Counted from the first letter of the stretch, positions 1-14,538 are shown. The stretch is DNA of 14,538 bases from Candidatus Thorarchaeota archaeon (GCA_046758445.1 JBHIAE010000065.1:1-14538), one strand, 5' to 3'. Numbers and translations are program-made. The notes: generated by a model from the sequence alone, not told the origin.

Positions 1-369
1 GACAAGATGAAGGTCAAAACTCTGCAGAGCAAAGATAGTCCCGCCGAAGTATACAGTTGCCTTTGTGATGTTGAATCCAGATGCAATCTCAGGACCTGTG
101 TTGGTCACGGTCACACGCACTGAGAACCCGAATGGTGGCCCCCCGGGCCCGATGATTGGCATGAAGTCCTGTGAGAAGTAGGCCGAGGCCTCAAACGTCA
201 GGTTGCTGACCACCACAGGATCGACAGTTCTTGAAGGGGGTGTCAAAGGAGGGGCGACCTGCCCGATAACCTCCCACTTGACCACCACTCTGATGAAGAG
301 GAATGCTATCACTATGGCTGCAAGAATGCCGAGTGCGAATTTGGTCCTGCGACCTATTGATAGATTCAC
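1..369 (-). CDS. Membrane-anchored/secreted hypothetical protein, 3'-truncated by window edge (not in ORF track)
   Basis: Manual translation from GTG at 369 is open to base 1: MNLSIGRRTKFALGILAAIVIAFLFIRVVVKW...YFSQDFMPIIGPGGPPFGFSVRVTVTNTG...; basic N-terminus plus hydrophobic helix; GAGGGG RBS-like sequence just upstream. Confidence 0.75.
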   Translation of the reverse strand, partial: MNLSIGRRTKFALGILAAIVIAFLFIRVVVKWEVIGQVAPPLTPPSRTVDPVVVSNLTFEASAYFSQDFMPIIGPGGPPFGFSVRVTVTNTGPEIASGFNITKATVYFGGTIFALQSFDLHLV

Positions 370-559
370 ATGGGCCCCTCTGTATGGGACCAATGCACCT
401 TTTGACCGATTAATGTGCTGGTCCTAGTATCATTGCCCGACTTCTTCTACGGGCACATATCGAAGCGAGGGGACTCCACATCGAAGAGAATGGTGATTTG
501 TTGTCAAGACGAGGAGGTGATAGCTTGGTCAACGGAGGCGGGACAAGAAGTGGTGGAGG

Positions 560-607
560 ATGTAAAGCCTTAAATGTAAAGTTCACCTTACGTAAAGTAG
601 ACTTTAC
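560..607 (+). promoter_or_regulatory. BRE/TATA-like promoter followed by two abutting 16-bp palindromic operators
   Basis: ATGTAAAGCCTTAAAT (560-575) resembles the tRNA promoter ATGAAAACCCTTAAAA; GTAAAGTTCACCTTAC (576-591, imperfect) and GTAAAGT-AG-ACTTTAC (592-607, perfect 7-bp arms) precede the HTH gene. Confidence 0.75.
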
Positions 608-619
608 ATCTCACTAAGC

Positions 620-865
620 GTGGTCCACATGATTGTCAATAGAATAAAGGAGATTCGAGAACGACGAATGGCGGAATCCGCCCATTCTGAGTTGTGGACT
701 CAGGAAGGTCTGGCACTTCGGTTGGGTGTCACCCGTCAGACCGTGATCTCAATGGAGAAGGGCACTTACAACCCCTCGCTTCTACTGGCGTTCAAACTGG
801 CCCGCACATTTGAGATGAGTATAGAGGAGATCTTCAACTACCGAGATGATGAGAATGAAACGTAA
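620..865 (+). CDS. XRE/Cro-C1 family helix-turn-helix transcriptional regulator (start may be ATG 629)
   Basis: NRIKEIR...TQEGLALRLGVTRQTVISMEKGTYNPSLLLAFKLARTF...IEEIF is a canonical HTH_3/XRE signature. Confidence 0.93.
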   Translation: MVHMIVNRIKEIRERRMAESAHSELWTQEGLALRLGVTRQTVISMEKGTYNPSLLLAFKLARTFEMSIEEIFNYRDDENET

Positions 866-1217
866 TCAAGCTGTACTCGTAGTCGCTGGAGCTCTGATTC
901 TTGCTTTGGGTTGGGTCTTCGACCCCTGGATTGTAGGGCCATGGGACACAATTCTCTTTGCAGTTCCACTGTCATTAGTTGGAACATTCTTGATCCTCCA
1001 GTTCATGGAGGAATATGAAGACGAGCGACTTGCGCATATTCGCAATATCTCAGCGCGCAATGGCTACTTGTTCGTGCTTCTTGCATTACCTCTCGTTTGG
1101 ACATCGACTCTGTTTCTACAGATATCTGCATTGACAACAGCCGGTCTCGTGTTTCTCGTGTGGTTTGCATCCTTGGGCGTTCTGTATCTCTCGGGAATCT
1201 ACTACTACAGGCGCTAG
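855..1217 (+). CDS. DUF2178-like 4-TM membrane protein (alternative starts 846/849)
   Basis: Four hydrophobic segments with a central DERxxxIxxxSARNGY motif; overlaps the end of the XRE gene, the usual pairing for this family. Confidence 0.75.
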   Translation: MKRNQAVLVVAGALILALGWVFDPWIVGPWDTILFAVPLSLVGTFLILQFMEEYEDERLAHIRNISARNGYLFVLLALPLVWTSTLFLQISALTTAGLVFLVWFASLGVLYLSGIYYYRR

Positions 1218-1222
1218 TGGTG

Positions 1223-1266
1223 AACCCCGTCCAGCATTAGCAGGTTGGGAGTCTAGCCACTACTTA
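1223..1266 (+). repeat. Degenerate, core-less copy of the repeat arm found after sites 6341 and 12785
   Basis: 34/44 ungapped identity to 12822-12865 (AACCCCGTCCAGCATTAGCAGGTTGGGAGTCTAGCCACTACTTA vs AACCCCGTTCAGCAATAGCGGACAGGGAGTCTGGCATCTACTCA). Confidence 0.75.
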
Positions 1267-1270
1267 CCGA

Positions 1271-1669
1271 CTAAGCACGTTGATTAACGGAGAGGCGTGT
1301 TACGATAGATCTTCTTCTGAGCATCGCCAAGAGAATCAACATGACACCACAGAGGAGAAACGCCACTCCTACGAGTGGAAAGACCCACCACTCTATCAGT
1401 TGGACGTTCAGAGCCAACTGTGTGTACATCAAAAGAACAGATCCAACACCGACTAGCACAGAACCCAAGAAGTTCAGGTTGGTGGCCTTGCTGTCCATCT
1501 GGTCATTTACGAAAAGGTCGCCTGCCATCACTATGATGAGGAAGATTCCGATTCCACCGACAATGAAGTTCCAAACGTAGTAGTCAGTACTCATCGTGGG
1601 GGTATACCCCGCCAGAAGAACCAGTACCAAGCCGATGAGCAGAAGTGCCTTGGAGTACTGTCTTTCCAT
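1271..1669 (-). CDS. Hypothetical 4-TM membrane protein
   Basis: ORF 1271..1717; start moved to ATG 1669 (MERQYSK) because GGTGAGG lies directly upstream; four hydrophobic helices and basic C-terminus. Confidence 0.75.
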   Translation of the reverse strand: MERQYSKALLLIGLVLVLLAGYTPTMSTDYYVWNFIVGGIGIFLIIVMAGDLFVNDQMDSKATNLNFLGSVLVGVGSVLLMYTQLALNVQLIEWWVFPLVGVAFLLCGVMLILLAMLRRRSIVTRLSVNQRA

Positions 1670-1764
1670 CCTCACCGCAACCAGTTCCTGAACCTGCTGA
1701 ACAATAAAAGAATGCATGTGTTTTTGAACACTACTGACAAACTCTTCCGTGGGGAGGTCTTTCG

Positions 1765-2060
1765 CTGCAGAAACGATATCCGTTCGCGGCGCTCGCCGTG
1801 CTATTTTCCACAGTTGTCACTCCGATTGCAGAGGTACAATGGAAGGATATGTTCATTTTGAGTGACCATGAGTTGTACTTCGTTTAGGGCACTTACAGTC
1901 TACAGAGAAACCGTATAGGGATTTACTGGTTAGGTGCAACGAACTACTACCCATCTCTGGGTCTTCTGAATCTGGTGGTTCTCTGGGCACTGTTTGGCGT
2001 TGTCCTGTCGGTCATTGTCCTTTGGTCGTCCAGGGTTAATTATCGGCCTGACCATCATGA
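1765..2060 (+). pseudogene. Probable decayed membrane-protein gene
   Basis: GGGGAGGT RBS (1751-1758) then CTG-CAG-AAA-CGA; frame reads LQKRYPFAALAVLFSTVVTPIAEVQW...YFV*GTYSL...LGLLNLVVLWALFGVVLSVIVLWSSR with TAG at 1885-1887; 3' boundary approximate. Confidence 0.4.
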
Positions 2061-2067
2061 CTACCTT

Positions 2068-2457
2068 TCAAATCTCATCCTCCTTAGGCTCAGGCTGTCT
2101 AATGATCCTCAAGATTATCACGAATGAGATGATTAGTAGGATTAGTTGAGCGGGGATGAAGAACACAAAGACATAGACAACGAACTGGAACGGCGAAAGC
2201 GCAAACAGATACGTTACGACCGGGTAGGAGAAGATGACTACAAGCTCCAAGACAAGCACTGGCCTTCCAAATCGACGATACCAACCTCCACTCGCCAAGT
2301 CTCTCTTATGAATTGAAGCAAGCAATTTGCCAGCTGCACCTGTGCGCGCCTGCTGAAACCATAGGAGTCCCTTGAAGTACAAGACTGCTATCACAATGAT
2401 TGTGAAACCCAGAGTCAGCAGTACAAGCGTGAGCGGGTCCTAGGCATTTGCCCGCAT
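2068..2457 (-). pseudogene. 3-TM membrane protein with premature TAG at codon 6 (or shorter CDS from GTG 2394)
   Basis: GGTGAA RBS then ATG 2457: MRANA*DPLTLVLLTLGFTIIVIAVLYFKG..., in frame with ORF 2068..2394; the stop at 2440-2442 lies just before the first TM helix, which the GTG 2394 start would truncate. Confidence 0.6.
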
Positions 2458-2870
2458 AACTTCACCAATTCCTTAGTTGTCAATTTACGCAATATACATT
2501 TCCAAATCGATACTGTTCATGAATTCGCAATCTTACAAATGGTAGATACTACAAGTTGTGGACCACTGTCACTGTTGTGGTTGCACCGGATGCACTGAAG
2601 GTCTATCAAGAGATTGCGGCATGAGTACAAGGGCAAATGTGTGGACTCTCGTACGAAACACGCAGAAGAACGAAGTGACTGTGTATCGTATTGTAGCCTC
2701 TCCTCCCCAAGCCCTTACTCATGCATCTTAGACAAGCTGCCAACTTGTCCAGTGGATGAACTTGCTGTTTATTTCTGAAGCTCCTCTTACGATTGGACGA
2801 AAGAGAGAAGTGGAGTCGAGTCGATTGCATAGTGAGAGTCTTGTCCTAATCACTATGAGAAGCTGATTCC

Positions 2871-3563
2871 ATGGACATCCGAATGCGCAGGGCAAGTAGA
2901 TTGCTTGCTTTGACAGCAGTGATAGTGTTCGTCACAGCATTGTCATCTTACTGGCTGACTGGTCCGCCCGTTCTTCACTCCTGGGAGAAGGAGGGCTCAA
3001 TACTGTTTTCTGACACTGGAACCGAGGTCAGTCTGCCCTGGGTTTCCAATCTCACACTCGAGGCTGAACGGGACCCATCGACAAACGACACGCAAGTAAT
3101 GGCGATCATAGATGGAGAGATAAGAGCGACTCTAAGGGATGCAGAGCTCTCCTTTGAGATGGAGTCCTTCTATTTCACGCCCAACTCTCACTACTCTGTC
3201 AACGAAACAAAACTAGTCATGCTGATTTCAGAAGACTCAGTTGTGGGCTGGAACCAGTCGTTCTACGAGCATTCCAGCCCCTACATGTTCTTCTATACTC
3301 TCAACAGAACACGCCCTGTCAATTCCAGTGTTCCCACAACATACACCCTTCGAATGATCTGGAACTCAACCTTGACGTTCATACCTGAAACTAGCACCAG
3401 CAGCGAGTTTGAAGTGACTCTTACCCTCTCAATTCGCTTCACTCAGATTGCAATGGGAGTAGACCCAACCGTCTTCAGGTATATTGTTGCGGTCGAGATA
3501 TCTCTGGGCATAGTGTCAGCAGCCTTTCTCTATTCTAGAAATAAACTTGTAATCGTTGAATAG
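2871..3563 (+). CDS. Hypothetical membrane-anchored extracellular protein
   Basis: 230 aa; N-terminal signal/TM, beta-rich middle with several N-x-S/T sequons, C-terminal TM helix. Confidence 0.8.
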   Translation: MDIRMRRASRLLALTAVIVFVTALSSYWLTGPPVLHSWEKEGSILFSDTGTEVSLPWVSNLTLEAERDPSTNDTQVMAIIDGEIRATLRDAELSFEMESFYFTPNSHYSVNETKLVMLISEDSVVGWNQSFYEHSSPYMFFYTLNRTRPVNSSVPTTYTLRMIWNSTLTFIPETSTSSEFEVTLTLSIRFTQIAMGVDPTVFRYIVAVEISLGIVSAAFLYSRNKLVIVE

Positions 3564-3761
3564 CGCCAGCCGAACCCATTTGAGTCGCCATTCTTCTGCT
3601 ATTCTTCTTCCAAGGCTCAAATACAATCCCTTGTGACTATACCTTCTCCGGACTCATATTTGTTAGCGAAGATTTCAATCTAGGAGGTATTATAATCAAG
3701 TTATACAGCCCCCAAGAACAGATTTTAGGAAGCTTCTCCTGGTCGTTTTGGGCGAATTGGA

Positions 3762-6302
3762 ATGGGGGTTCGTAATCTCTCTATGTGCCTAGCTCTCCTG
3801 GGCATTCTAGTTCTAACTCTAGCTACTGGAACAATGCAATCGACTGCCTACGTAGTTGATGAAACCCACGGGGCAGCCACTTCTTCTCAGGTGACCCGCG
3901 ACTTGGAGTTCACTCTCGGAAAGGGCTTTCAGGCCTCAAACTACGTTGATAAGCCAGATTTGGCCGACCGGTCCGCCGCGGACGTCACTGGCAGTATAGG
4001 AAGCTTCCTGCCGAGTGGTCTGCAAAGAGTGACTACAGTCGACATCTACTACACCTATGTTACTCTATCAATCTCACAGATTCATGTTATTGAGGATAGG
4101 GATTTTGGTGCTGGTGAGGTCTATCTTGAGGTCATATTCAATGATTATGAGCATGACATCTTTGACAACGGCGGGAGCTACTACGTTGTCAACGATGGGG
4201 ACTATGTGACAACATCCATCTCTGTGTCTTCTGAACAGTATTCCATCGACGGGTGGTTCATAGTGGAGATAATCGGTTGGGAGGATGATGCAGACGCAGA
4301 CCAGATAGATGACTACATGGGGGGCGAGTACTTTTCGGTCGACCTGAGTGGGCTTACATCTGTAGGATATGAGGGCTGGTACGTGTTGAACGACTATCCA
4401 CCAGTCGGAGGAAACAATGCTGAGCAGATAGAGGTGTATCTCGACCTTGACTTCACGATGGTCGATAGTCTGACATATCCAGACGACTTCATGTCACCAA
4501 GTGGAGATGGGTCTTATCTTATCTCAGCAATCTATCAACCCAAGATTCACTATGATGTGACAGATGGTGGCAACAATCCTGGAATCAGTGTGATTTTCCA
4601 ACAGGTATTTCGAGGTTATGACCCAGCCATAGGAGCTGATGCATACCTGATCTACTACATGTTATACTATGAACAGGAGAGAGACAACTTCGGTCTAAAC
4701 TTCGGTCACTACTATGACTTCGAACCACTACTTCTCTACGTCCAGTCTTTGGGCTCCGTGCCTTATCGGATTGTGTTTAGAAATGTAGGAACGCACACTC
4801 TACCCCCAAAGCTAATCATCCAAGACTACTACGCACCTACAGTATCTGGTTCGACCAATGTGTCGGTCACAACTGAACTATGCCCGCTTCTAGGTGACCA
4901 TGCCATGGTGGACTACGAGGTCAAAGACAACTATTGGTCGACATCTAGTTTCCAGCACAAGTCCGAAACCGGGCTCAGTCCATTCATGAATGTGCCAATT
5001 CTCACTGTGACAAACACCTATCACCAGATGGAGCTAGGAGTCCCGCTCACAGTGACGGTAGACTCTGGACTCAACTGGATGGCTCTTCAGCCCATGTCTG
5101 ACTCTGTGATAGAATGGGGCTACAACCTGCTGGACGAGGCATTTGCCAGTCCAGTCAATGTCTACGAGGGTGTGACTCTCTGGAATGGTGGCGACTACAA
5201 GGTACCAGAGAACATGTCATTGACTTTTGACATGCTGCGCAATCCGTTCCTGTTCCCCTATGTGGTGGACTGCTACGAGGAGGTGGTACACTACACCGAG
5301 AGCGCACAAGACTACAAGGAGAATGGTTTCTACTACGATATAGACCTCCTACTTGAGTTTAGAGTTCCAGCCACTGTGACGTTTGAAATACCGACGACTG
5401 TGTATGTGGGTCAGACCTACGATGTGACAATCGATCTTCAGCTTGATCCCAACGACATTACTGTGGCATTCAGCTATGATGTGATGCTGGGTTACGTCCT
5501 GCATTGGTGGTTCATAGGGGTCGAGGAAGACTCTACGTACTCGGGGGATTACAAGTTCAAGCTGGCATTGAGCGATTTCGCGGACACTCTCCAGTCACTC
5601 GGATTCGGTCCAGAGAGTGTAGTTGGAGCGCAGTTTAACAACTGGTTCACAGTCACTGGCTTCTCTACAAGCACTGACCTGCTGGGAACACTGCTTGACG
5701 CGACTGTGGAGGTACACTTGCTTGAAGTACTGAGCACCATAATGGGACCAACAAGCGTTGGGTGGCTAGTTGGTCTGATTGAGGTATTCCTAGACAGTGT
5801 GAACCTCGTTGTGTCACCTGAGGTCAGCGGCAGTGTCACAACAGGGATTGAAGCCATGAACTCAGCGATTGTTCTAGACACTGACACCCTGACCTTTCAG
5901 GAGGGCAACACCAGACAGACAGTCCAGATGACGGTGGTCGGTGGGCATACTTCCACAGGCATCTCGTTGTCCAACGTGCAGTACCATGTATTGTTCGCCA
6001 CTGACTGGGGCATAGACTTCGACTTCACAGACACCATGAACTACTTCGTTTCCGACTTCTCTGTGTTCTTGGGGACATTCCCCGAGATCACAATTTCTAG
6101 CGACGACCATTCAATAGGAGCGAGTCTTGCGACCGGGTACACAGAGGCACTCACTATGAGCGTGACAAGTGCGCCTACGACGACCACTTCGGGAGTCACA
6201 GGACCCGGTGATGTACTGGGTTCCTTGCTTCTACCGTTGGGCCTGGGCGGGGTTGTCATTGTGGCGCTCGTAGTGGTAATGTTGAGAAGAAGACAAGGGT
6301 AG
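3762..6302 (+). CDS. Large secreted, C-terminally anchored cell-surface protein (putative C2-like and NPP1/Vps62-like domains)
   Basis: 846 aa; signal peptide; acidic; Thr-rich linker (TSAPTTTTSG), TM helix and RRRQG tail; domain calls are from motif resemblance only. Confidence 0.88.
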   Translation: MGVRNLSMCLALLGILVLTLATGTMQSTAYVVDETHGAATSSQVTRDLEFTLGKGFQASNYVDKPDLADRSAADVTGSIGSFLPSGLQRVTTVDIYYTYVTLSISQIHVIEDRDFGAGEVYLEVIFNDYEHDIFDNGGSYYVVNDGDYVTTSISVSSEQYSIDGWFIVEIIGWEDDADADQIDDYMGGEYFSVDLSGLTSVGYEGWYVLNDYPPVGGNNAEQIEVYLDLDFTMVDSLTYPDDFMSPSGDGSYLISAIYQPKIHYDVTDGGNNPGISVIFQQVFRGYDPAIGADAYLIYYMLYYEQERDNFGLNFGHYYDFEPLLLYVQSLGSVPYRIVFRNVGTHTLPPKLIIQDYYAPTVSGSTNVSVTTELCPLLGDHAMVDYEVKDNYWSTSSFQHKSETGLSPFMNVPILTVTNTYHQMELGVPLTVTVDSGLNWMALQPMSDSVIEWGYNLLDEAFASPVNVYEGVTLWNGGDYKVPENMSLTFDMLRNPFLFPYVVDCYEEVVHYTESAQDYKENGFYYDIDLLLEFRVPATVTFEIPTTVYVGQTYDVTIDLQLDPNDITVAFSYDVMLGYVLHWWFIGVEEDSTYSGDYKFKLALSDFADTLQSLGFGPESVVGAQFNNWFTVTGFSTSTDLLGTLLDATVEVHLLEVLSTIMGPTSVGWLVGLIEVFLDSVNLVVSPEVSGSVTTGIEAMNSAIVLDTDTLTFQEGNTRQTVQMTVVGGHTSTGISLSNVQYHVLFATDWGIDFDFTDTMNYFVSDFSVFLGTFPEITISSDDHSIGASLATGYTEALTMSVTSAPTTTTSGVTGPGDVLGSLLLPLGLGGVVIVALVVVMLRRRQG

Positions 6303-6340
6303 GAAACATGTACAAACTTCCTCATCGGCACTTACTTAAT

Positions 6341-6442
6341 CGAGTTCTATGAAAACCCTTGAAAACCGCAAGTACGCAGACCCCTTCAGCAATAGCGGGC
6401 TGGGGAGGCCACTACTCATTGCGTAACCACGGCAGTCAATGT
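6341..6442 (+). repeat. 28-bp dif-like site (6341-6368) plus conserved downstream arm
   Basis: CGAGTTCTATG-AAAACC-CTTGAAAACCG; first 20 bp identical to 12785 and 14434; 6394-6411 is 16/18 identical to the tRNA 5' end; 6412-6442 is 24/31 identical to 12859-12889. Confidence 0.9.
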
Positions 6443-6837
6443 GGCTGGGTTAGTCATTCTGTCACAGTTCTTTCCAGCTCAATTGCTGCCTGCAGCACAG
6501 TTGACACTGCAAGTAGTTCCCGTCATTGGTCCCCTTGTTTTCGCAACAACATATGTGAACACTGATCGACCAAAACCTCTGGTGATAATCTAGCAGACCT
6601 CAGCAAGCAAGCCATCTGCGAGTCCGAGCTTGGATGAAATGATTCTTATATTAGAAGAACTTTTCATGTGAAACAACCTAGGGGGCGGTTTCGAAACTCA
6701 AAGTGCATGTAGAGCAAGGACATCGTGTCGGAGAGAAGGACCTCACTGGTCTACATTCTCAGCGAAGACACAGGTACACGTGAATGTTCGGATCAGATAC
6801 CTAACCGTACCTCTAGTGTGAAATAGGAGGGTGAAGT

Positions 6838-7362
6838 ATGAGTGGAGATGACGATGGGGCAGAAGCCCGCGTGTCAATTATCAATGCTGTGAAGAGTCCA
6901 CTGGGGTTCTTCACGCTAGTTATACTCGTTCTAGAGAGTTTCCTTGTGGCCGCATCGGCGGCAACACAACAGATTCCTATGTGGATGCCCTTTGCCATCA
7001 TGACGTTGCTCATAGTCTGTGTAGTTGTGTTAGCGTGGGTCAGGCCTGAATTAGTGGGTGCCCCACAACCTGAGAGGCATGTCACCATGAGATTCCCAGA
7101 TGGCTATCAGATTGACTTCGACGATGACAGTGGTGAAATGGTTGTTAGGCCCAAACGTGGCTTGGGCACAAGGACTGTCTTCACGCCATCATGTAACGAA
7201 GAGGGCAGTTGGTTCCATACACTACCTCATCATGTGGGCTCCGACGATCAAATCAGAATAACTGTCAATGACACTCAAGCACGAAAGTGGAGGACAACAC
7301 CATTCATCCCTCGCTCAATTACAAGAGAGATGAATCTGGTTGTAGAGGGTGGAGGTGCATAG
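6838..7362 (+). CDS. 2-TM membrane protein with soluble beta-rich C-terminal domain
   Basis: 174 aa; GGAGGGTGA RBS; IINAVKSPLGFFTLVILVLESFL...WMPFAIMTLLIVCVVVLAW helices; operon with pYEATS gene. Confidence 0.85.
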   Translation: MSGDDDGAEARVSIINAVKSPLGFFTLVILVLESFLVAASAATQQIPMWMPFAIMTLLIVCVVVLAWVRPELVGAPQPERHVTMRFPDGYQIDFDDDSGEMVVRPKRGLGTRTVFTPSCNEEGSWFHTLPHHVGSDDQIRITVNDTQARKWRTTPFIPRSITREMNLVVEGGGA

Positions 7363-7365
7363 ACG

Positions 7366-7683
7366 ATGAGCCTTGAGAAGCTTGAATTCAAGTTCAATAA
7401 CACGTCTGAGCAAGTCGAGTCCCGCAAAATCCGAGGAGAAGAATACAAGTGGTTCAACTGGGAGGTCTTCATGGAAGAGCCTGAAGAGAAGCTAAAGCTA
7501 GTGGAATCAGTTGAGTATCGACTTCACGAAACATTTCCCAATCCAATTCGGACCATATATGACTCGAGCACCAAGTTCGCTCTCAAATCCTCTGGGTGGG
7601 GAGTGTTCAGAATCTTCATCACAGTCTATCTCAAAGATGGGAGAGAGGTGGAAGCCAGTCACTATCTGAAGCTGTATGGATAG
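7366..7683 (+). CDS. Prokaryotic YEATS (pYEATS) domain protein
   Basis: FNWEVFM...VESVEYRLHETFPNPIRTI....KFALKSSGWGVFRIFITVYLKDG matches YEATS hallmarks (VxYxLHxTFxNP, FxLxxxGWGxF); GGAGGTG RBS. Confidence 0.92.
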   Translation: MSLEKLEFKFNNTSEQVESRKIRGEEYKWFNWEVFMEEPEEKLKLVESVEYRLHETFPNPIRTIYDSSTKFALKSSGWGVFRIFITVYLKDGREVEASHYLKLYG

Positions 7684-7749
7684 CGGCTTACCGTAGACGC
7701 AAAGGCCGTAGATACTACAACTACGGTGACTACGACTATCACGACGACT

Positions 7750-8473
7750 GGTCAGAGAGCAATAGGCTGCAGAGTTACACGGTCGGAAGTGTTCTGGCGA
7801 GCTGTTTCAGTTTGAAGACATCGAGAAGAGAGGAGAAGGAAGTAAGGCCGAGTATCGAGTCTCCTATGAGTTGTACAAGGAGTACAGAGAGTTCTTCGAG
7901 AGTGAAAAGGTGGAGTCGTAGCCCAAACTCGTCCGCATCACTGAGGCTGAGCAGAAGGACCTAGTTGGCTGGATAGGTCAGTGGAAAGACAGTCAGAACC
8001 TGGATATCCTGCCCCATCTGGAGCACTTCTTCTTGAAGGGCGGGAGTCTGACGAACTTCTCTGAGCAGCTCATTCTTCGGTCCAAGAAGGAGGTCCTGGT
8101 CGTGAACCCCTTCGTAGACCAATGTGAACTGAGCGACTCCCTGTGGAAGACAGTGGAGGAAGGAAAGGATGTTATCCTCATTGCGAGGTCACCCGAGGAA
8201 GAGAAGGACCAGAAGCATCGAACTCGTAACGAGAAACAGCACAAGGTCCTGAGAGAGCGGGGTGCGAGAGTCGCTTACGACCAGAGGGGTCATGCGAAGT
8301 TGATTGTCGTTGAAAAGGCTGTGGCGGTTGTTTCTTCCATGAACCTCACCGGGCTTTCCACCGGAGAATCATCGTGGGAGGCTGGGCTGGTGACAAAGGA
8401 GGACACTGTTGTTGAGTCGATAGTCGACTCTATCTATGGACTGCTTGAGAGGCCAGATTCTGAGGCGCAGTGA
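7750..8473 (+). pseudogene. Decayed phospholipase D (HKD) nuclease-like domain gene
   Basis: Frame of ORF 8033..8473 extends upstream (ELFQFEDIEK...YRVSYELYKEYREFF) through an in-frame TAG at 7919-7921, with a likely frameshift near 7797; motif HAKLIVVE...SSMN (HxKxxxxD with D>E); no clear start, so the 5' boundary is approximate. Confidence 0.7.
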
Positions 8474-8549
8474 AGGCTCTTAGTCTGGAATGAAGGGGAT
8501 TGATTCGAGATGATTGAGCGTTCTCTTATTGGACTGGTTGTGGCAGCTG

Positions 8550-8569
8550 TCGAGGATCCGTTTCCTCGA
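8550..8569. other. Small hairpin between convergent genes
   Basis: TCGAGGA-TCCGTT-TCCTCGA, perfect 7-bp stem. Confidence 0.35.
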
Positions 8570-8611
8570 ATAGTGTGAGCGATGTGTTTTGCGTGTTGCG
8601 AGGCCACGCGC

Positions 8612-9136
8612 CTACTTACTTAGATGTCTAGCCATTCTCAGAATGGCAAGTGTGGAGGGATCGTACTGTCCTTTATCTTGGGGTTCTTCAAGATATTTGA
8701 ACAAATCCTCAAGTATGTCCTCAAACCAGACTAGTTCAATCCCGGCTGATGTCAGAGCTTCAATCCGCTCTGCAAATGCAGTCTTGCCGAAATGCTTTCG
8801 CGGGGTAACTAGCACCTTTCTCACAGCGGGGGCACTGACAACTCCGAAAGATTCTTTGATGATAGTACGAATTTCCTTCTCACGATGCTTGTTTTTCAGT
8901 TGTTCAACCAAGGCGGGTATCTTCTCTGATTCTGTGGCACCTATCCAGTCTGTAGTACGCCACTTAATCTCATAGTCGGCGAATTTCTCTCCTCCATCAG
9001 TTGCCAGAATGTCTATCTCGCGTGTCATCCTCTTGTTCTCTTTGCTCATGTACGGGTAGGGTATGTTCATCATCACAAACTGTTTTCTACAAAACTGAAG
9101 CCAGACCCTCACGACATCCTCTGCAGCGTTTGTCAT
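8612..9136 (-). CDS. PD-(D/E)XK superfamily (restriction endonuclease-like) nuclease
   Basis: AEDVV...REIDILA...DYEIKW catalytic pattern; start moved to ATG 9136 after a GGTGA RBS. Confidence 0.8.
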   Translation of the reverse strand: MTNAAEDVVRVWLQFCRKQFVMMNIPYPYMSKENKRMTREIDILATDGGEKFADYEIKWRTTDWIGATESEKIPALVEQLKNKHREKEIRTIIKESFGVVSAPAVRKVLVTPRKHFGKTAFAERIEALTSAGIELVWFEDILEDLFKYLEEPQDKGQYDPSTLAILRMARHLSK

Positions 9137-9374
9137 CGCATCACCATTAAGTATGGCATTGAAGTTGCACAATATTCTTTCGGAGAACGACTATGGCTCA
9201 GATACCCGAATTTCTTGATCATAGAAAGCTGTTAGAAGCCTCACTTCTTTCAGCCTCGTATCAGACTCATGTCGTCCTCTCCCTAATAGCGACACAATGC
9301 CAGAGCCTTGGTGGAGGTTTTATAGATTCGACGCTACGTTCTTATGTGCAGGCTTTGATTGTGTCGTGGTCGAT

Positions 9375-10652
9375 ATGGAACAGAGTCGAGTGACTGACTT
9401 CGACATCCGCGAAGAAGACGCAGAGGAAGATTGGACCTATGCTGGAGCAGATACCAGATACATGACACATGGTCTACATACCTATCCCGCCCGCATGATT
9501 CCACAGATAGCAAGAAGGCTAGTTCTAAATTACTCACAGGGGGGTGAGCTCGTCTGGGATCCATTTTGTGGCTCTGGTTCTGTGCTTGTGGAGTCGATGC
9601 TTCTAGGAAGAAGATGTATTGGAACCGACCTTAATCCCTACGCAGTCTTCCTTTCCAAGGTGAAAACTAGGCCTATTGAACAAACACTTCTCCGAGAAAC
9701 CACCGAGTCAATCATTCATAGGGTAAAATCACTTCAACAATCAAAGAGAAAGAAGGTGGATATCCCGGACATTCCCAATATCGATTACTGGTTCAAACCG
9801 TATGTCCAACGAAAACTGGCAATAATCAGAGAGGAGATCAACTCTCTTGAGGATTCGACTACAAAGGACTTCCTAAGACTGTGTTTCGCATTGACGGTAC
9901 GGGAAGTTTCAAACCTGAAGAAGCGGGAGTTCAAGATTGTTCGAATGAGAAAACCCAAGCTTGAGGAGTTTCGTCCTGACGTGTTTCAGTCTTTTGTGAA
10001 TCAGGTGCGAAGATGCGTTCCTCTTATGAAATCATTCACTACCGGCCTACCGGAGAACGTGGAGATGGCCGAAGTACTGGAAGTTGATAACAGAGCAGCC
10101 CCTATCAATCCGAAGTCGGTGGACTTGGTCGTCACATCCCCTCCCTATGGAGACCATGGCACGACTGTGGCATATGGGCAGTTCTCAAGGTATCCTGCAC
10201 TCTGGATTGACCTGGACTCTGATGATGTTAGGACCGTAGATCGTCGTGGACTTGGGGGAAGGAACACTCGCGAATATTCTTCATCTGAACTTCCTAGTGA
10301 AACCCTAGTCAAGACTTATGAGAAGGTTCACAAGAACAGTCCGAAGAGGGCACGTCAACTGTACAACTTCATGTATGAGTTGAATGAGTCATTTCAATCC
10401 ATACATGAGAAACTAAGGCATGATGCAAGAGCCTGCATAGTTGTTGGGAATCGTCTTATGAGCCGTGTAAGGATACCCACCAATGCAATCATCGTTGAGC
10501 TCGGTTCACAAATGGGATTGGAGCATGAGTGTACGATTCCACGGAGTATTCCCATAAAACGTATGCCGTGGCAAAACGCGCCCGAGAATGTGGAAGGCAG
10601 CAAGGCAGATACCATGCACACTGAGAACATAATCATCCTCAGAAGAGGCTAG
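9375..10652 (+). CDS. N4-cytosine DNA methyltransferase, M.MvaI-like (alpha motif order)
   Basis: THGLHTYPARMIPQIA, motif I DPFCGSG before motif IV VVTSPPY; start probably ATG 9375 (ORF open from 9297). Confidence 0.93.
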   Translation: MEQSRVTDFDIREEDAEEDWTYAGADTRYMTHGLHTYPARMIPQIARRLVLNYSQGGELVWDPFCGSGSVLVESMLLGRRCIGTDLNPYAVFLSKVKTRPIEQTLLRETTESIIHRVKSLQQSKRKKVDIPDIPNIDYWFKPYVQRKLAIIREEINSLEDSTTKDFLRLCFALTVREVSNLKKREFKIVRMRKPKLEEFRPDVFQSFVNQVRRCVPLMKSFTTGLPENVEMAEVLEVDNRAAPINPKSVDLVVTSPPYGDHGTTVAYGQFSRYPALWIDLDSDDVRTVDRRGLGGRNTREYSSSELPSETLVKTYEKVHKNSPKRARQLYNFMYELNESFQSIHEKLRHDARACIVVGNRLMSRVRIPTNAIIVELGSQMGLEHECTIPRSIPIKRMPWQNAPENVEGSKADTMHTENIIILRRG

Positions 10653-11365
10653 ACCAATCTCTCTGTATGCGCATAGAGTTGAGGTATGTCTGTTTCGAAC
10701 ATCCGATAACCCGGGCCGTGGTCTCTAACTCTACCGTCCGGCTTGATATGCATTCGCCAGTCAAACACGATCTTGCCCCTCCTGAGAAGGTTCAACAATC
10801 GTCCCGCGTCTGCCCTTGCAAGAAGATACGCCTCATTGTAGTGAAAGAACTCAATCTTTCCATCCACTTTCCGTTCAGCAAGCACCAATACGAGGTTCTC
10901 AACCTTCCTAGTCAATACATCCTGTAAGGACGCTAACTCCTCATAGGCGACTATCTCCCCGTTATGTACGAATTCTATTCTTCCCCGTTGATCATAAATG
11001 AGAATCCGCCAGCCCAAACTGTTGGTTTCTGTGGCTGAAACGGTGCAATATAGGGACTGACGGCCTTTCTTAGAATCCCAATAACCATGCTCAGTAACAA
11101 GAGTCCTTGGATCTATCCCCTCTACACGTTTCGGAACCTTTGAGAAAAGCGTAACAAGGTTTCTTTGGCTCTTTCTTGTGGCCTTAATCTCGAAGACACC
11201 CCAGTCTGGAATGGCAATATTGTTCTCAGCATATCCGAGTAGTGCCTCCAAAGTATGCCCGACTCCGGTTGGCCCCTTTCGTGCCGTTCTTACCCAGCCC
11301 AAGTTCTTGATAGTCTGAATCTTCCTCGTTAGTTCCTCCACTGTCATTTCAGGTGCGCTAGTCAT
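10649..11365 (-). CDS. MvaI/BcnI family type II restriction endonuclease
   Basis: GPTGVGHTLEALLGYAENNIAIPDWGVFEIKATRK...LVTLFSKVP...RDHGPGYR is the characteristic MvaI/BcnI pattern; adjacent to an m4C MTase. Confidence 0.92.
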   Translation of the reverse strand: MTSAPEMTVEELTRKIQTIKNLGWVRTARKGPTGVGHTLEALLGYAENNIAIPDWGVFEIKATRKSQRNLVTLFSKVPKRVEGIDPRTLVTEHGYWDSKKGRQSLYCTVSATETNSLGWRILIYDQRGRIEFVHNGEIVAYEELASLQDVLTRKVENLVLVLAERKVDGKIEFFHYNEAYLLARADAGRLLNLLRRGKIVFDWRMHIKPDGRVRDHGPGYRMFETDIPQLYAHTERLV

Positions 11366-11653
11366 TGCGCCTACCCATCCCCGGTAAACAGTCGGGACAG
11401 TTGCAGATATAGCTTCCTGGAGGTCATGCTCCGAGAGTTTCGTGCGTACACGTGCATCAAGACCTTTCTCCTAGACGCTGAGAAATCTACCTCAACAGAG
11501 GCTGCTCATTTAAATGCACTACTGAATATGTTTCACTTGAATTCAGGTGGGACTGTGGAATTAGCAAGGATTTGCCAATATGCACTTGCTGTACCAAACA
11601 ACGGAGATGCGAGATATCTCACGATTGGTCAGGACAAGGTGGAGTGTAGCGGG

Positions 11654-12154
11654 ATGTCATCAGAAGATAATGACAAGAAAGTACTGGAACCGGTGATGAT
11701 TGACAATCGGACAAAGTCTGTCGTGTTTATTTCGGGAGTGTTGGTAGCGATATCCTTGGTTTTGACCGACTTCTTGGTAATCAACTTCGGCTCGAATCAA
11801 ATCGTTGTTCTTGGTGTGAGTCTTCCGATAAATGTTATAGTTTCATCGCTGTTCGTACTAAGTCTTGTCGCAGGCATTCTAATAGCAAGGGCATATCGTG
11901 AGAACAGTGCGCTCACTGTCATTGTCTATGGGGGGTTCTGGTTCACTGCCGTGCTTTTTGCGTATCACACTGCATCTCCCTATGGATATCCCTTGATTGT
12001 TCTGTTTCCGTGTGCTCTCGCCATAGGAGGGCTGGGCCTTGGGCTATACAGAGTTCTTCAAGGTGACAGAGGAATTGACGATTTGTTGATGTGGGTTCTT
12101 TTGGCCAGCACTGCCATAAACCTCCTCTACTTCTTGGTTGGGGGGATTCCATGA
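11654..12154 (+). CDS. Hypothetical multi-pass membrane protein
   Basis: ORF 11426..12154; start probably ATG 11654 (MSSEDNDKK, after GGTGGAG); about five TM helices. Confidence 0.75.
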   Translation: MSSEDNDKKVLEPVMIDNRTKSVVFISGVLVAISLVLTDFLVINFGSNQIVVLGVSLPINVIVSSLFVLSLVAGILIARAYRENSALTVIVYGGFWFTAVLFAYHTASPYGYPLIVLFPCALAIGGLGLGLYRVLQGDRGIDDLLMWVLLASTAINLLYFLVGGIP

Positions 12155-12642
12155 ACAGTAACCATTCAAGTTTCTACAAGGGCATATTGACGCTCATTAC
12201 TATAGTAGGTGCACTCGTGTCAGGCTACCTTGTCTTGCCAAACATTGGATTGGATACACTTCTGGTTTTCAGTGTCAAGGCCTTTCTGATTGGTGCGACC
12301 ATTGGCGTCGCAGCAATGAAGAAACGTAGGGTGGTAATTGAGAAGTACAGATTGGGAATTCGTACCTACAAGAAATATGCTGAACTGGAAGACCCGTCTG
12401 GTTTCTGGTTCATTCTCGGGTTTGGGTTAGTTGCTGTTACGATTTCGATTCTCCTAGTTACAGAATCCTTTGCGTTCACAACTCTGTTTGTCTTTGCATC
12501 GGGTTTCATGTTTGTTTACTCCGACGCAGCCGATGAGTTGGTAGGAGCGCATGCATTTGTAAGATCACTTGCATATCTGCTTATACTCATCACATGCTTC
12601 GTGATTGTAGCGAATCTGATAGCGTGGCTACCACCAATGTAG
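12151..12642 (+). CDS. Hypothetical multi-pass membrane protein, translationally coupled to upstream gene
   Basis: ATGA start/stop overlap at 12151-12154; about five TM helices. Confidence 0.78.
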   Translation: MNSNHSSFYKGILTLITIVGALVSGYLVLPNIGLDTLLVFSVKAFLIGATIGVAAMKKRRVVIEKYRLGIRTYKKYAELEDPSGFWFILGFGLVAVTISILLVTESFAFTTLFVFASGFMFVYSDAADELVGAHAFVRSLAYLLILITCFVIVANLIAWLPPM

Positions 12643-12784
12643 GAGAGCCTCATGCCCCCTGCCTAGCTTCTCTGGGTTTCTGATTTCTGATGCCCGCTCC
12701 AAATGAATCCAGCACCGAACAAATCCGTCCTCATAGTTGTCCTTCTCTTGTGAAGTTGTTGAATCTGTCCGGACCTCATTCATA

Positions 12785-12889
12785 CGAGTTCTATGAAAAC
12801 CCTTAGAACTCCGCTCTGTGCAACCCCGTTCAGCAATAGCGGACAGGGAGTCTGGCATCTACTCATTAGCTGGCCACGGTGGTCAATGT
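12785..12889 (+). repeat. 28-bp dif-like site (12785-12812) plus conserved downstream arm
   Basis: CGAGTTCTATG-AAAACC-CTTAGAACTCC; arms are 9/11 inverted-complementary (perfect GAGTTCTA/TAGAACTC); downstream arm shared with 6369-6442 and 1223-1266. Confidence 0.9.
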
Positions 12890-13174
12890 AAGGGTGTAAT
12901 TCCGTCCAGAATGTCCTCATTTACGAGAATGAAGGCAGATGTATGGACTGGCTGGATAAGGAAAGCGCGGTCTTACACTAAAACGAATAGTCGATAGTCT
13001 GGCAGAGCGAGCTAGGAGGACGGGATTCAGAATCAGGGCCCAGAACCTGCTTTGCTGTTTTGTCTTAGGTTGCCCAAGAACAGCTGGAACGCATCACAGG
13101 TTCAGCATTTCTCATCAAATGCACACAAGATTTATGCCAGCATGATATGTCCAAGAATCGGATCGTGGTTAGGA

Positions 13175-14203
13175 ATGTCGAAAACAGATTACTTCAAGCT
13201 TGATTTCTGGAAAGAAGTTAGGACAAGAGAACCATATCGCCGATATCGCATAGTCGATTTCCTTGGTATTGGGGGCACTGCTGCGAGCTTCCTAGCAGTC
13301 TGCATATCACCGAAGGAATACATCGGTCGATTAGTCGCGATTCAGTTCTTCAGAAAGTATTCAGTACCTGAAAGGCTGAACAAATTCTTAGAAGCGTTCA
13401 GTTTCCTAAGTGATTGTACGCACCCGTCCATTGTGAACGTGTATGGCCTTCACACCTACTATGAACGTCCAATGATAGTCACTGAGTATCTTCCTCTGAC
13501 TCTGCATGATGTAATTCGGAAAAAGAAATCTTCCATTGTTGAGAAGACTAGCTTTGCAATGCAATTGCTTTCGGCCTTGGTGTTCTTAGAGCAACAGAAA
13601 GTAGTGCACAGGGACATCAAGCCATCCAACATATTTGTCAAGGGGAAGAGCTGCATGCTAGGGGATTTTGGGATGATGAAGAGGATTGAAACGACATCGG
13701 ATGATGAAGACATCATAGAAGCGATGGCTGTTGCTGACACGTACCTCGATGGAACTGAAGTCTATCAGATACCGCTTACTGAATATGGCATGATTGACGC
13801 CAAGGAGGTTGAGAACAGCGGCATAACCGTGACCGGACATTATTGGAGTCCTGACAAGGTGCTCGATTATGCGGGAATAGAAGACATAACTCCGGCCTCG
13901 GATGTGTATCAATTGGGACTGGTGCTTGCTCATCTGTTTACAGGGTGGAATCATCAACCCAAATTGCCAAGAGATGGTCGAGGTGAACCAGATCTTGACA
14001 TGGCTCTACAAGTCGCATTGGGGCCAGAGAGTGTACGTCGAATCCCATCCTATGCTGGACCGGGAATTGCCAATCTTATTTCAAAGATGCTCGAAAAGAA
14101 CCCGTCGGATCGACCTCAAGCGAAAGACTTGATTGTATCATGGATTGGAGTCTTCGAGGAGGTTACAAGGGCCGCTAGGGTTATAGAAGGGCGCGTCTTC
14201 TAG
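13175..14203 (+). CDS. Hanks-type Ser/Thr protein kinase family protein (possible pseudokinase)
   Basis: LGIGGTA Gly-loop, HPSIVNVY, VHRDIKPSNIF, LGDFGM, SDVYQLG, KMLEKNPSDRP; beta3 reads VAIQ instead of VAIK; start probably ATG 13175. Confidence 0.9.
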   Translation: MSKTDYFKLDFWKEVRTREPYRRYRIVDFLGIGGTAASFLAVCISPKEYIGRLVAIQFFRKYSVPERLNKFLEAFSFLSDCTHPSIVNVYGLHTYYERPMIVTEYLPLTLHDVIRKKKSSIVEKTSFAMQLLSALVFLEQQKVVHRDIKPSNIFVKGKSCMLGDFGMMKRIETTSDDEDIIEAMAVADTYLDGTEVYQIPLTEYGMIDAKEVENSGITVTGHYWSPDKVLDYAGIEDITPASDVYQLGLVLAHLFTGWNHQPKLPRDGRGEPDLDMALQVALGPESVRRIPSYAGPGIANLISKMLEKNPSDRPQAKDLIVSWIGVFEEVTRAARVIEGRVF

Positions 14204-14247
14204 CATTGGTGTATGTCTTCTCACAGTCACCATCAGTCTTCCTTAGG

Positions 14248-14267
14248 GGTGAGCAGTAGCGCTCACC
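14248..14267. other. Hairpin downstream of kinase gene
   Basis: GGTGAGC-AGTAGC-GCTCACC, perfect 7-bp stem. Confidence 0.35.
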
Positions 14268-14433
14268 GGAAATCTAGTTCAGTCTGTTTCCTCACTGCTT
14301 GTTTTCGTACCAGTGTAAGCAAAAGTACGAGTGAAATTCTGAACAGGTTGACAAGCGAGATTATTCCGCGTTTCTGAAACACATTCCCGTCACTTTGGCA
14401 CTATGCAACCTCGTTCGCTGATGCACACTCACA

Positions 14434-14461
14434 CGAGTTCTATGAAAACCCTTAAAACCCG
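14434..14461 (+). repeat. 28-bp dif-like site overlapping the tRNA-iMet promoter
   Basis: CGAGTTCTATG-AAAACC-CTTAAAACCCG; arms 8/11 inverted-complementary; first 20 bp identical to the other two copies. Confidence 0.9.
14444..14457 (+). promoter_or_regulatory. BRE + TATA box of tRNA-iMet
   Basis: GAAAACC-CTTAAAA ending 27 nt before the mature tRNA 5' end; typical archaeal spacing. Confidence 0.7.
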
Positions 14462-14483
14462 CATCGTTTCAGCTACAACTTAC

Positions 14484-14538
14484 AGCGGGTTGGGGAAGCC
14501 AGGCCTATCCCGCGGGGCTCATATGAGCGGAAACGCTT
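14484..14538 (+). tRNA. Initiator tRNA-Met(CAT), 5' half plus start of an intron; truncated by window edge
   Basis: A1-starting acceptor strand AGCGGGT, D-stem GGGA/TCCC, anticodon stem CGGGG (G29-G31 initiator hallmark), CT-CAT-A at 14518-14523; the expected 3' stem is replaced by TGAGCGGAAACGCTT. Confidence 0.9.

Follow-up and report, generated by a model that had tools for sequence, protein, structure and literature searches.

The window analyzed here is the entire contig C65 (14,538 bp, JBHIAE010000065.1) of a metagenome-assembled genome (MAG) of a Candidatus Thorarchaeota archaeon (GCA_046758445.1, G000 below) comprised of 3.25 Mb in 113 contigs. The right end of the window holds the 5' exon of the initiator tRNA gene (tRNA-iMet), which is preceded by an array of direct repeats that separate sets of genes. 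A scan of the window revealed three exact copies of the 17-mer CGAGTTCTATGAAAACC at 6341, 12785 and 14434, all on the plus strand, where 0.01 are expected by chance and none of 200 shuffles reached three. Identity among the copies spans 20 nt, through CCCTT. The distances between the sites are 6444 and 1649 bp, and all three are intergenic, located 39, 143 and 231 nt past the preceding stop codons. An earlier note on this DNA had described these sites as 28-mers of one orientation with two 11-nt arms around a 6-nt spacer, and its positions, spacings and intergenic placement were reproduced, as were the arm complementarities of 6/11, 9/11 and 8/11. For random 28-mers of G000 the probability of at least 8/11 is ~0.0015 and that of at least 6/11 is ~0.035. 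Since the copies are homologous, the complementarity counts as one observation only.

Alignment of the sites with the other genomic copies showed that the 28-mer is a real but incomplete part of the repeat, the full length of which is 75–130 bp. The unit is laid out as the 28-mer, a spacer of ~25 nt and AGCGGGTTGGGG, which is nt 1–12 of the tRNA following the third site; nt 12, where the tRNA part of the units ends, is the junction of the D-stem and D-loop. A hidden Markov model (HMM) of the unit detected eight copies in G000, four on C65 and four on contig C80, the latter at 1721 (truncated), 3131, 4266 and 7687. Those in the window are on the plus strand at 1223–1252, 6332–6409, 12776–12853 and 14425–14499. 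The first, which the earlier note had not included, is truncated to the 3' part of the spacer and AGCAGGTTGGGAG, without the 28-mer or promoter, and the same junction in a relative (G007) leads into a different cassette. In unit 1 the 28-mer (6341–6368) is followed by the spacer, the tRNA-like segment AGCGGGCTGGGGA (6394–6406) and a conserved block, termed E, to ~6442. In unit 2 the 28-mer (12785–12812) precedes a degenerate tRNA-like segment, AGCGGACAGGGAG (12838–12850), and the unit with its adjoining sequence (12776–13016) has a block of 245 bp in common with C80:3132–3369.

The unit alignment was extended to 25 distinct units from five genomes and five metagenome contigs, in which two blocks are conserved, GTTCTATGAA..CC.TT.AAACTC and AACCCGTCCAGCAATAGCGGGTTGGGG. 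The first, corresponding to the 28-mer, is absent from 5 of the 25 junction units that nevertheless retain the second, so that the block at the tRNA start is the more universal. The right edge is sharp at tRNA nt 12/13 in most copies; one class ends at nt 6–7 and one copy at nt 48. All units are direct within each array, and the first gene downstream is co-oriented in 5 of 9 cases and opposite in 4. Many units have an extra conserved flank ~30 nt upstream (...TTCGNCGGTC...ATTCACA) and one 50–245 nt downstream, for example CTACTCATT...CCACGG.AGTCAATGT. With conserved blocks on either side of the core, the arm, core and arm layout of the units resembles that of an attP site. An imperfect dyad, AGTTC-N14-GAACT, with arm matches of 6–9/11 across 16 units, has inner arms and a spacer that overlap the promoter elements conserved in array-free genera. 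An attC-like hairpin or structured RNA was rejected, with no Rfam family in the window and no conserved fold by RNAalifold for 16 units (three pairs, −1.5 kcal/mol, no covariation).

Two further features of the unit flanks were observed. A non-coding block of ~245 bp (68% identity) follows the unit and precedes the first gene in three cassettes (kinase, HTH and NYN), the copies being at 12853–13016 and 305–605 of the window and at 3206–3372 of C80 (extracted region L044). It contains no open frame and has no Rfam match; its possible roles include that of an att arm and that of a 5' leader common to the three cassettes. Comparison of the metagenome contigs L079 and L078 (reverse strands) revealed, just past the 12 tRNA-like nucleotides, an indel of 62 nt flanked by GGG microhomology, within which TATGCAATC...GATTGCATA form an inverted repeat of 9 bp; the long form is the one present in the window (2793–2837).

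The third unit is the working promoter of tRNA-iMet (14425–14483, plus strand), as the earlier note had proposed. A TATA-like sequence, TTAAAA (14452–14457), is centered ~29 nt before nt 1 of the tRNA with a purine-rich GAAAAC (14444–14449) resembling a B recognition element (BRE) directly upstream, which is normal archaeal promoter geometry; the third site lies ~30 nt upstream of nt 1. The tRNA segment (14484–14538, plus strand) comprises the 5' exon through CAT-A (14484–14523) and the start of an intron cut by the contig end. Neither ARAGORN nor Rfam called a tRNA in the window because the contig stops within this intron, and the 3' part was not found in the G000 assembly. Nucleotides 14484–14523/34 are 95–100% identical to the first 40–51 nt of the complete tRNA-Met(CAT) genes of relatives, which carry the A1:U72 pair and the G29–31:C39–41 anticodon stem that are hallmarks of archaeal initiators. 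A separate elongator tRNA-Met is located on contig C90.

The core C(Y)ATGAAAACCCTTAA is found at the same distance before the single complete tRNA-iMet of G005, G016 and G017 (another genus). The center of the 28-mer is the core of the tRNA-iMet promoter, conserved in other genera without arrays, and its invariance therefore needs no recombinase. The unit is a complete tRNA-iMet promoter (BRE/TATA and a spacer of ~30 bp) together with the first 12 nt of the transcript. Within G000 ATGAAAACCCTTAA occurs in units only and is not a general promoter motif, the explanation against which the earlier note had set its own. None of the other 36 tRNA genes of G000 (37 in all) has a duplicated 5' region.

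Introns and leaders of tRNA genes vary in these genomes. The tRNA-iMet of the complete chromosome G004 (CP070658.1, same genus) is interrupted by one intron following nt 37 and another within the T-arm (region L040, 3718–3905; ~423.7 kb), and 2.3 kb upstream lies a displaced 5' fragment with D-loop and anticodon introns that ends at nt 48 (L040, 1436–1600; ~421.4 kb). Two tRNA-iMet alleles with unlike introns in tandem agree with the idea, attributed to Sugahara 2012 in the account given by PMC8371274, that att recombination moves tRNA introns. In G003 (L043 10954–11250; contig C15, ~18.95 kb) a promoter with a degenerate AGCGGATTGGG is followed by 45 nt of unrelated sequence and a tRNA-iMet without a promoter of its own, the transcript of which, to judge from this arrangement, must start at the pseudo-unit and include ~70 nt of leader. 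The locus looks like a cassette worn down to a scar. Many other tRNA genes of G000 have introns of 13–68 nt at several positions, and introns of 599, 1472 and 1285 nt reported by ARAGORN for tRNA-Val, tRNA-Ile and tRNA-Arg (contigs C8, C25 and C34) may be artefacts or introns that carry open reading frames (ORFs).

The genes between the units are largely defense genes and a surface protein, in agreement with the earlier note, which had spoken of defense and surface-protein cassettes. The left end of the window (1–605, plus strand) is the non-coding start of a cassette in which 424–543 is homologous to the post-unit blocks C80:3251–3370 and window 12900–13016; the unit expected before it lies beyond the contig edge in G000 and is present in G007. 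The cassette encodes an XRE-type helix-turn-helix (HTH_3) regulator (620–865, plus), a conserved neighbor directly upstream of tRNA-iMet in G003 and G005, and a small membrane protein with the C terminus YYYRR (846–1217, plus), the second gene of this conserved left pair. Beyond the truncated unit are a 148-aa membrane protein on the minus strand (1271–1717), the DNA of which is 89.6% identical to the gene just right of the first G004 unit, a 230-aa gene cassette (2793–3563, ORF 2871–3563, plus) and an 846-aa predicted secreted or surface protein (3762–6302, plus) having an N-terminal signal-like segment, a C-terminal transmembrane anchor with a basic tail and no Pfam family.

Cassette 1 (6341–12785) encodes a prokaryotic YEATS-domain (pYEATS) protein (7366–7683, plus), a PLD-like nuclease resembling DrmC (8033–8473, plus), a type II N6/N4 DNA methyltransferase (9297–10652, plus), an MvaI/BcnI-family type II restriction endonuclease (10649–11365, minus) and, beside unit 2, two overlapping orphan ORFs of 242 and 183 aa (11426–12642, plus) that match no family and lack relatives, and hence do not represent an integrase, the 242-aa ORF having zero relatives among 5.8 billion proteins. 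The sole gene of cassette 2 (1649 bp) encodes a Ser/Thr kinase-fold protein of the mad6 or PD-T4-6-like defense-associated type (13052–14203, plus) with intact HRD and DFG motifs; the beta-3 VAIK motif reads VAIQ and the catalytic lysine is missing. As a query against contigs of the relatives the kinase returned none, and exact-protein look-ups for the HTH protein, the membrane protein, the 148-aa protein and the 383-aa kinase found nothing on record. A weak match to a C/D-box-like sRNA (Rfam sR5, 22 bits versus a gathering threshold of 40, E = 0.16) inside the kinase ORF (13670–13738) is probably due to chance. Cassettes on C80 carry an SDR protein, an NYN-domain protein, a solute-binding protein (SBP) and a DM13 protein.

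The distribution of the unit was evaluated with a 125-nt query, which matched 5 of 17 genomes of the genus (G000, G004, G006, G007 and G008) and none of 69 genomes from 15 other genera of the family, in which the tRNA-iMet 5' region is single-copy. Five metagenome contigs contain units, one of them two units just 830 bp apart. No contig of IMG/VR contains a unit, and an attP on a virus or plasmid was thus rejected as far as that database is concerned. The content of the locus varies from near-empty in G003 to 5.3 kb in G004 and ~13 kb in G000. G003 has the HTH and small membrane protein genes (80% amino acid identity to window 620–1217), ~66 nt, the pseudo-unit, 56 nt and the real tRNA, a comparison which indicates that window ~1220–14434 (~13 kb) is an insertion in G000 relative to G003. 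In G004 three tandem units are located at 418.3, 421.4 and 423.7 kb, the middle one being the displaced fragment that keeps tRNA nt 1–48 and the last being the intact multi-intron tRNA-iMet, with two further units elsewhere in the chromosome. The direct repeats contain a partial tRNA (nt 1–12, in some nt 1–7 or 1–48), and the arrays end in the intact tRNA-iMet in G004 and in its 5' exon in the window. A different situation was observed in G005 (contig C5; L041 6574–15285), where the 13 kb between the HTH/membrane pair and tRNA-iMet contain four tandem paralogous SBP_bac_5 genes and no units, therefore the same locus also grows by ordinary gene duplication.

Comparison between genomes established that the units are cassette junctions. 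Contig C504 of G007 is composed of C80:6037–7766 (94.6% identity), C65:1–1249 (93.6%) and C80:7731–8130 (92.8%); that is, the HTH cassette of the window is inserted in G007 exactly at the C80 unit between the SBP and DM13 cassettes that are adjacent in G000. The 230-aa gene lies directly behind a full unit in L078 and L079, a unit that is deleted in the window, and sequence ~88–89% identical to the 3' part of the PLD nuclease gene is found close to units both of G004 and of metagenome contigs. The earlier note had asked for gene blocks gained, lost or shuffled at the repeats, and such blocks were found in G003, G004, G007 and the metagenome contigs; shuffling between genomes is exact to the junction. 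Cassette DNA is ~90% identical to that of G004 (89.6% for the 148-aa gene), compared with 74% for the phenylalanyl-tRNA synthetase (PheRS) genes, ~74–77% for core genes and 70–81% for the flank of the G004 tRNA locus. The corresponding values for G007 are 93–95% for cassettes and 88% for PheRS. Since cassette DNA is more similar between species than PheRS or flanking DNA, the results indicate that cassettes are exchanged horizontally within the genus.

The position of the crossover was investigated using pairs of units that share one neighbor. The partner switches mostly at the unit edges, which is uninformative because all units are homologous. An internal chimera was identified for the C80 unit at 7747 and the G007 unit at 1712, where the left neighbor and the 28-mer are shared and the spacer between the TATA element and the tRNA start is swapped; therefore, recombination evidently occurred in or just after the 28-mer at least once, although this was not the only place. 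In the Logan assemblies of runs SRR29324601-03, contigs matching the window at 100% identity were identified, with ends at 2838 (two runs; the cassette boundary defined by L078), 12841 (nt 4 of the tRNA-like segment of unit 2), 12812 and 14459. A contig of 1648 bp (12812–14459) in SRR29324603 holds the kinase cassette by itself, with a k−1 overlap of 30 nt to its neighbor. The ends do not fit a simple deletion or circle between units 2 and 3, for which a branch is expected at 12805/14433; they are branch nodes of the assembly graph, those inside units 2 and 3 coming from one sample, and are at most suggestive, showing only the presence in that sample of other sequences that share at least 30 nt with units.

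The search for a recombinase covered C65, C80 and the inter-unit ORFs of G004 with Pfam, PHROGs, NCBIfam and PADLOC and found none, and six-frame searches with PF00589, PF16795 and PF00239 found none in either gene set between the window sites. These results bear out the statement of the earlier note that the gene sets lack a recombinase and support its description of an array of such sets anchored on the tRNA-iMet promoter. Six-frame searches with PF00589 identified two genes in G000 (C34 and C52) and a single gene in each of G004 and G008, whereas G003, G005, G006 and G007 (MAGs 74–87% complete) yielded no match. No match was located on C65, on C80 or within ~0.7 Mb of the G004 array, the sole tyrosine recombinase of G004 being at 1.10 Mb, 0.7 Mb from its array; the G000 DNA downstream of the tRNA is unassembled. 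Orthologs of the two tyrosine recombinases of G000 are missing from the other genomes with arrays, the five array genomes yielded no serine recombinase in six frames, and no SSV-type integrase (PF16795) was matched in the G000 genome.

Three candidates were considered, and none was supported. A split integrase of the SSV or pTN3 type around the units is excluded by reading frames that close 10–20 codons after the tRNA-like segment and by the absence of a PF16795 match. A recombinase hidden among the ORFs without assigned function found no match in PHROGs or NCBIfam, and the 242-aa ORF is without relatives. The third candidate was the C34 recombinase (C34 27332–28486; L045 7333–8487), a protein of 384 aa with a C-terminal zinc ribbon, considered as an array-adjacent, integron-like integrase. 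It is unsupported in this role, located among core genes (PheRS alpha and beta, a Ras-like GTPase, a CBS protein and AlaX) and lacking an ortholog in the remaining genomes with arrays and, more broadly, in 15 of the 16 genomes of the genus besides G000. C34 also holds an ortholog of a gene downstream of tRNA-iMet in G004. The C34 recombinase may mark another, separate integration event.

The results show that the cassette array is real, that its repeats are of the att type and mark the 5' end of tRNA-iMet, and that it follows the logic of pTN3. The integrases of pTN3-like (SSV-family) elements of Thermococcales use the 5' half of a tRNA gene as attB, after which the tRNA is driven by an element promoter (PMC8371274; Cossu et al. 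2017). Archaeal attB sites can reach beyond the gene, and module exchange between tandem elements has been described for archaea (PMC8371274). As with pTN3, the 5' side of the tRNA is targeted, the insert re-supplies the 5' part and a promoter, and direct repeats with tRNA 5' sequence flank the insert. The array differs in that pTN3 has its attP inside the int ORF and yields split Int(N) and Int(C), whereas the unit of the present array is not traversed by any ORF, and neither an SSV-type nor another integrase was found. Moreover, just 12 nt of the tRNA and its own promoter are duplicated, and the inserts are cassettes of 0.83–6.4 kb rather than plasmids or viruses.

Serial Campbell-type insertion by the integrase of a mobile element, acting in trans or since lost, followed by recombination between units, is judged somewhat more probable than its alternatives combined as the origin of the array. 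A circular DNA segment with one unit would recombine with the unit before tRNA-iMet and thereby land upstream of the tRNA, the circle, the position of crossover and the enzyme all being postulated. The essential tRNA would keep a full promoter and 5' end, leaving a pseudo-unit at the far side of the segment, and repeated insertion would produce stacked cassettes. Recombination between units would then lead to deletion, excision and reshuffling, with small deletions eroding old units. The insertions would most likely be the work of a mobile-element tyrosine integrase, in trans or since lost, and the later shuffling that of homologous recombination between units.

Several results weigh against this explanation. 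Neither an integrase gene nor a fragment of one was found in ~45 kb of arrays from the five genomes and five metagenome contigs, and no tyrosine or serine recombinase is common to the array genomes (MAGs 65–93% complete). The cassettes are very small (0.83–6.4 kb), and several contain genes that resemble housekeeping genes (SDR, solute-binding protein, NYN). The IMG/VR database was without any unit-bearing contig. Furthermore, the partner switches, mostly at unit edges and in the sole internal chimera just past the 28-mer, do not define a crossover point.

Some of these same results would be explained if no site-specific recombinase was ever involved and the ~75-bp unit served as a portable patch of homology by which RadA-dependent recombination moves circles containing one unit. 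An integrase-independent platform of this kind agrees with the lack of a recombinase in or near any array or common to the array genomes, with the variable switch points and with the absence of units from viral and plasmid contigs. The three identical 20-mers between diverged flanks in the window are also what crossovers that require identity would leave. It does not explain the first duplication, the sharp edge at tRNA nt 12/13 across genomes or the conserved attP-like flanks on both sides of the unit. Perfect identity between units extends just 20–30 nt, a short stretch for homologous recombination to proceed efficiently, and tRNA genes are classic targets of integrases (PMC8371274). Movement by homology alone is considered unlikely, although it is the most probable of the alternatives.

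The earlier note had interpreted the 28-mer as a dif-like site of 11-6-11 geometry at which a XerA-like enzyme of the host, acting in trans, exchanges strands within the AAAACC spacer, comparable to integrative mobile elements exploiting Xer (IMEX) and pdif modules. The imperfect dyad with its 6–9/11 arm matches is real, the dyad arms do not belong to the promoter core that other genera conserve, the switch in one chimeric junction falls inside the 28-mer or directly past it, and the cassettes are without recombinases, all of which is consistent with that view. Against it stand the five junction units that lack the 28-mer while keeping the tRNA-start block and a repeat that runs at least 45 nt past the 28-mer. 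The spacer and inner arms are the BRE and TATA elements and so are conserved for another reason. No conserved Xer-like gene was found in the genus (MAGs 65–93% complete), none being detected in G003, G005, G006 or G007 and the two of G000 being strain-specific, which also speaks against the XerA-like enzyme in trans. A cluster of eight copies does not resemble a dif site, and the units are direct, whereas pdif modules are bounded by inverted pairs of oppositely oriented sites. Thus, the Xer interpretation appears improbable. Likewise slightly regarded is a non-mobile origin, in which the units are copies of a strong promoter made by local segmental duplication and kept to drive or regulate their neighbors with the dyad as operator, for example for the HTH protein: every unit holds a complete promoter, 5 of the 9 genes that come first after a unit run in its direction and an XRE-type HTH gene is a conserved neighbor, but the first gene is opposite in the other 4, cassette DNA is far closer between species than core genes, identical cassettes lie between different neighbors in different genomes, the 12 nt of tRNA are unneeded by a promoter, and the dyad has no further intergenic copies in the genome, its other instances all lying inside long ORFs, so that a regulon operator has no support.

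The array was also compared with further known systems. Tandem accretion and cis-mobilizable elements (CIMEs), which are att-flanked and integrase-less, are known from the integrative and conjugative elements of bacteria. The array shares with them att-bounded segments arrayed at one tRNA, internal att copies, integrase-less segments and module exchange. It differs in that these genomes yielded no element with a cognate integrase, in having up to eight units and very small segments, and in an att that is a whole promoter on the 5' side of the tRNA. The likeness to integrons is in the small, mostly promoter-less or single-gene adaptive and defense cassettes stacked at one site, shuffled and exchanged; unlike integrons, the array has no neighboring IntI, its units show conservation of sequence and no attC-like hairpin (−1.5 kcal/mol), and each carries a promoter. 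As in IMEX and pdif modules, a recombinase is missing from the cassettes, and the dyad in part of the unit is similar to an 11-6-11 arrangement, whereas no conserved Xer gene was found in the genus, the site is not the dif of the chromosome, the unit exceeds 28 bp, some junctions are without the 28-mer and the sites are direct. No description of such an array was found in a paper on mobile elements of Asgard archaea (PMC11529989).

The array extends the rare 5'-side logic of pTN3 to a new lineage in a new form. Genes for tRNAs are classic landing sites of mobile DNA, which almost always enters on the 3' side and leaves the gene its own promoter. Here the essential initiator tRNA is hit from the 5' side, and each insert duplicates the whole promoter, making the units natural portable promoters. 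Up to eight small cassettes without recombinases, encoding restriction-modification enzymes, a PLD nuclease, a YEATS protein, a kinase and surface proteins, have accumulated at these units. With DNA identities between species of ~90% for cassettes compared with ~74% for the core, the array provides a concrete route of gene flow and turnover of defense genes in Asgard archaea. If no integrase is involved, the array would point to cassettes moved by homology or by an enzyme not yet known. More tentatively, it is possible that the array is a true gene-capture platform of Asgard archaea, the unit being a portable recombination module by which small, promoter-bearing and mostly defense cassettes are taken up, stacked, rearranged and transferred from one species to another with no integrase encoded by cassette or array, the engine being either homologous recombination of the host or an unrecognized family of recombinases. 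Such a platform would be a functional analogue of the integron built on the promoter of an essential tRNA.

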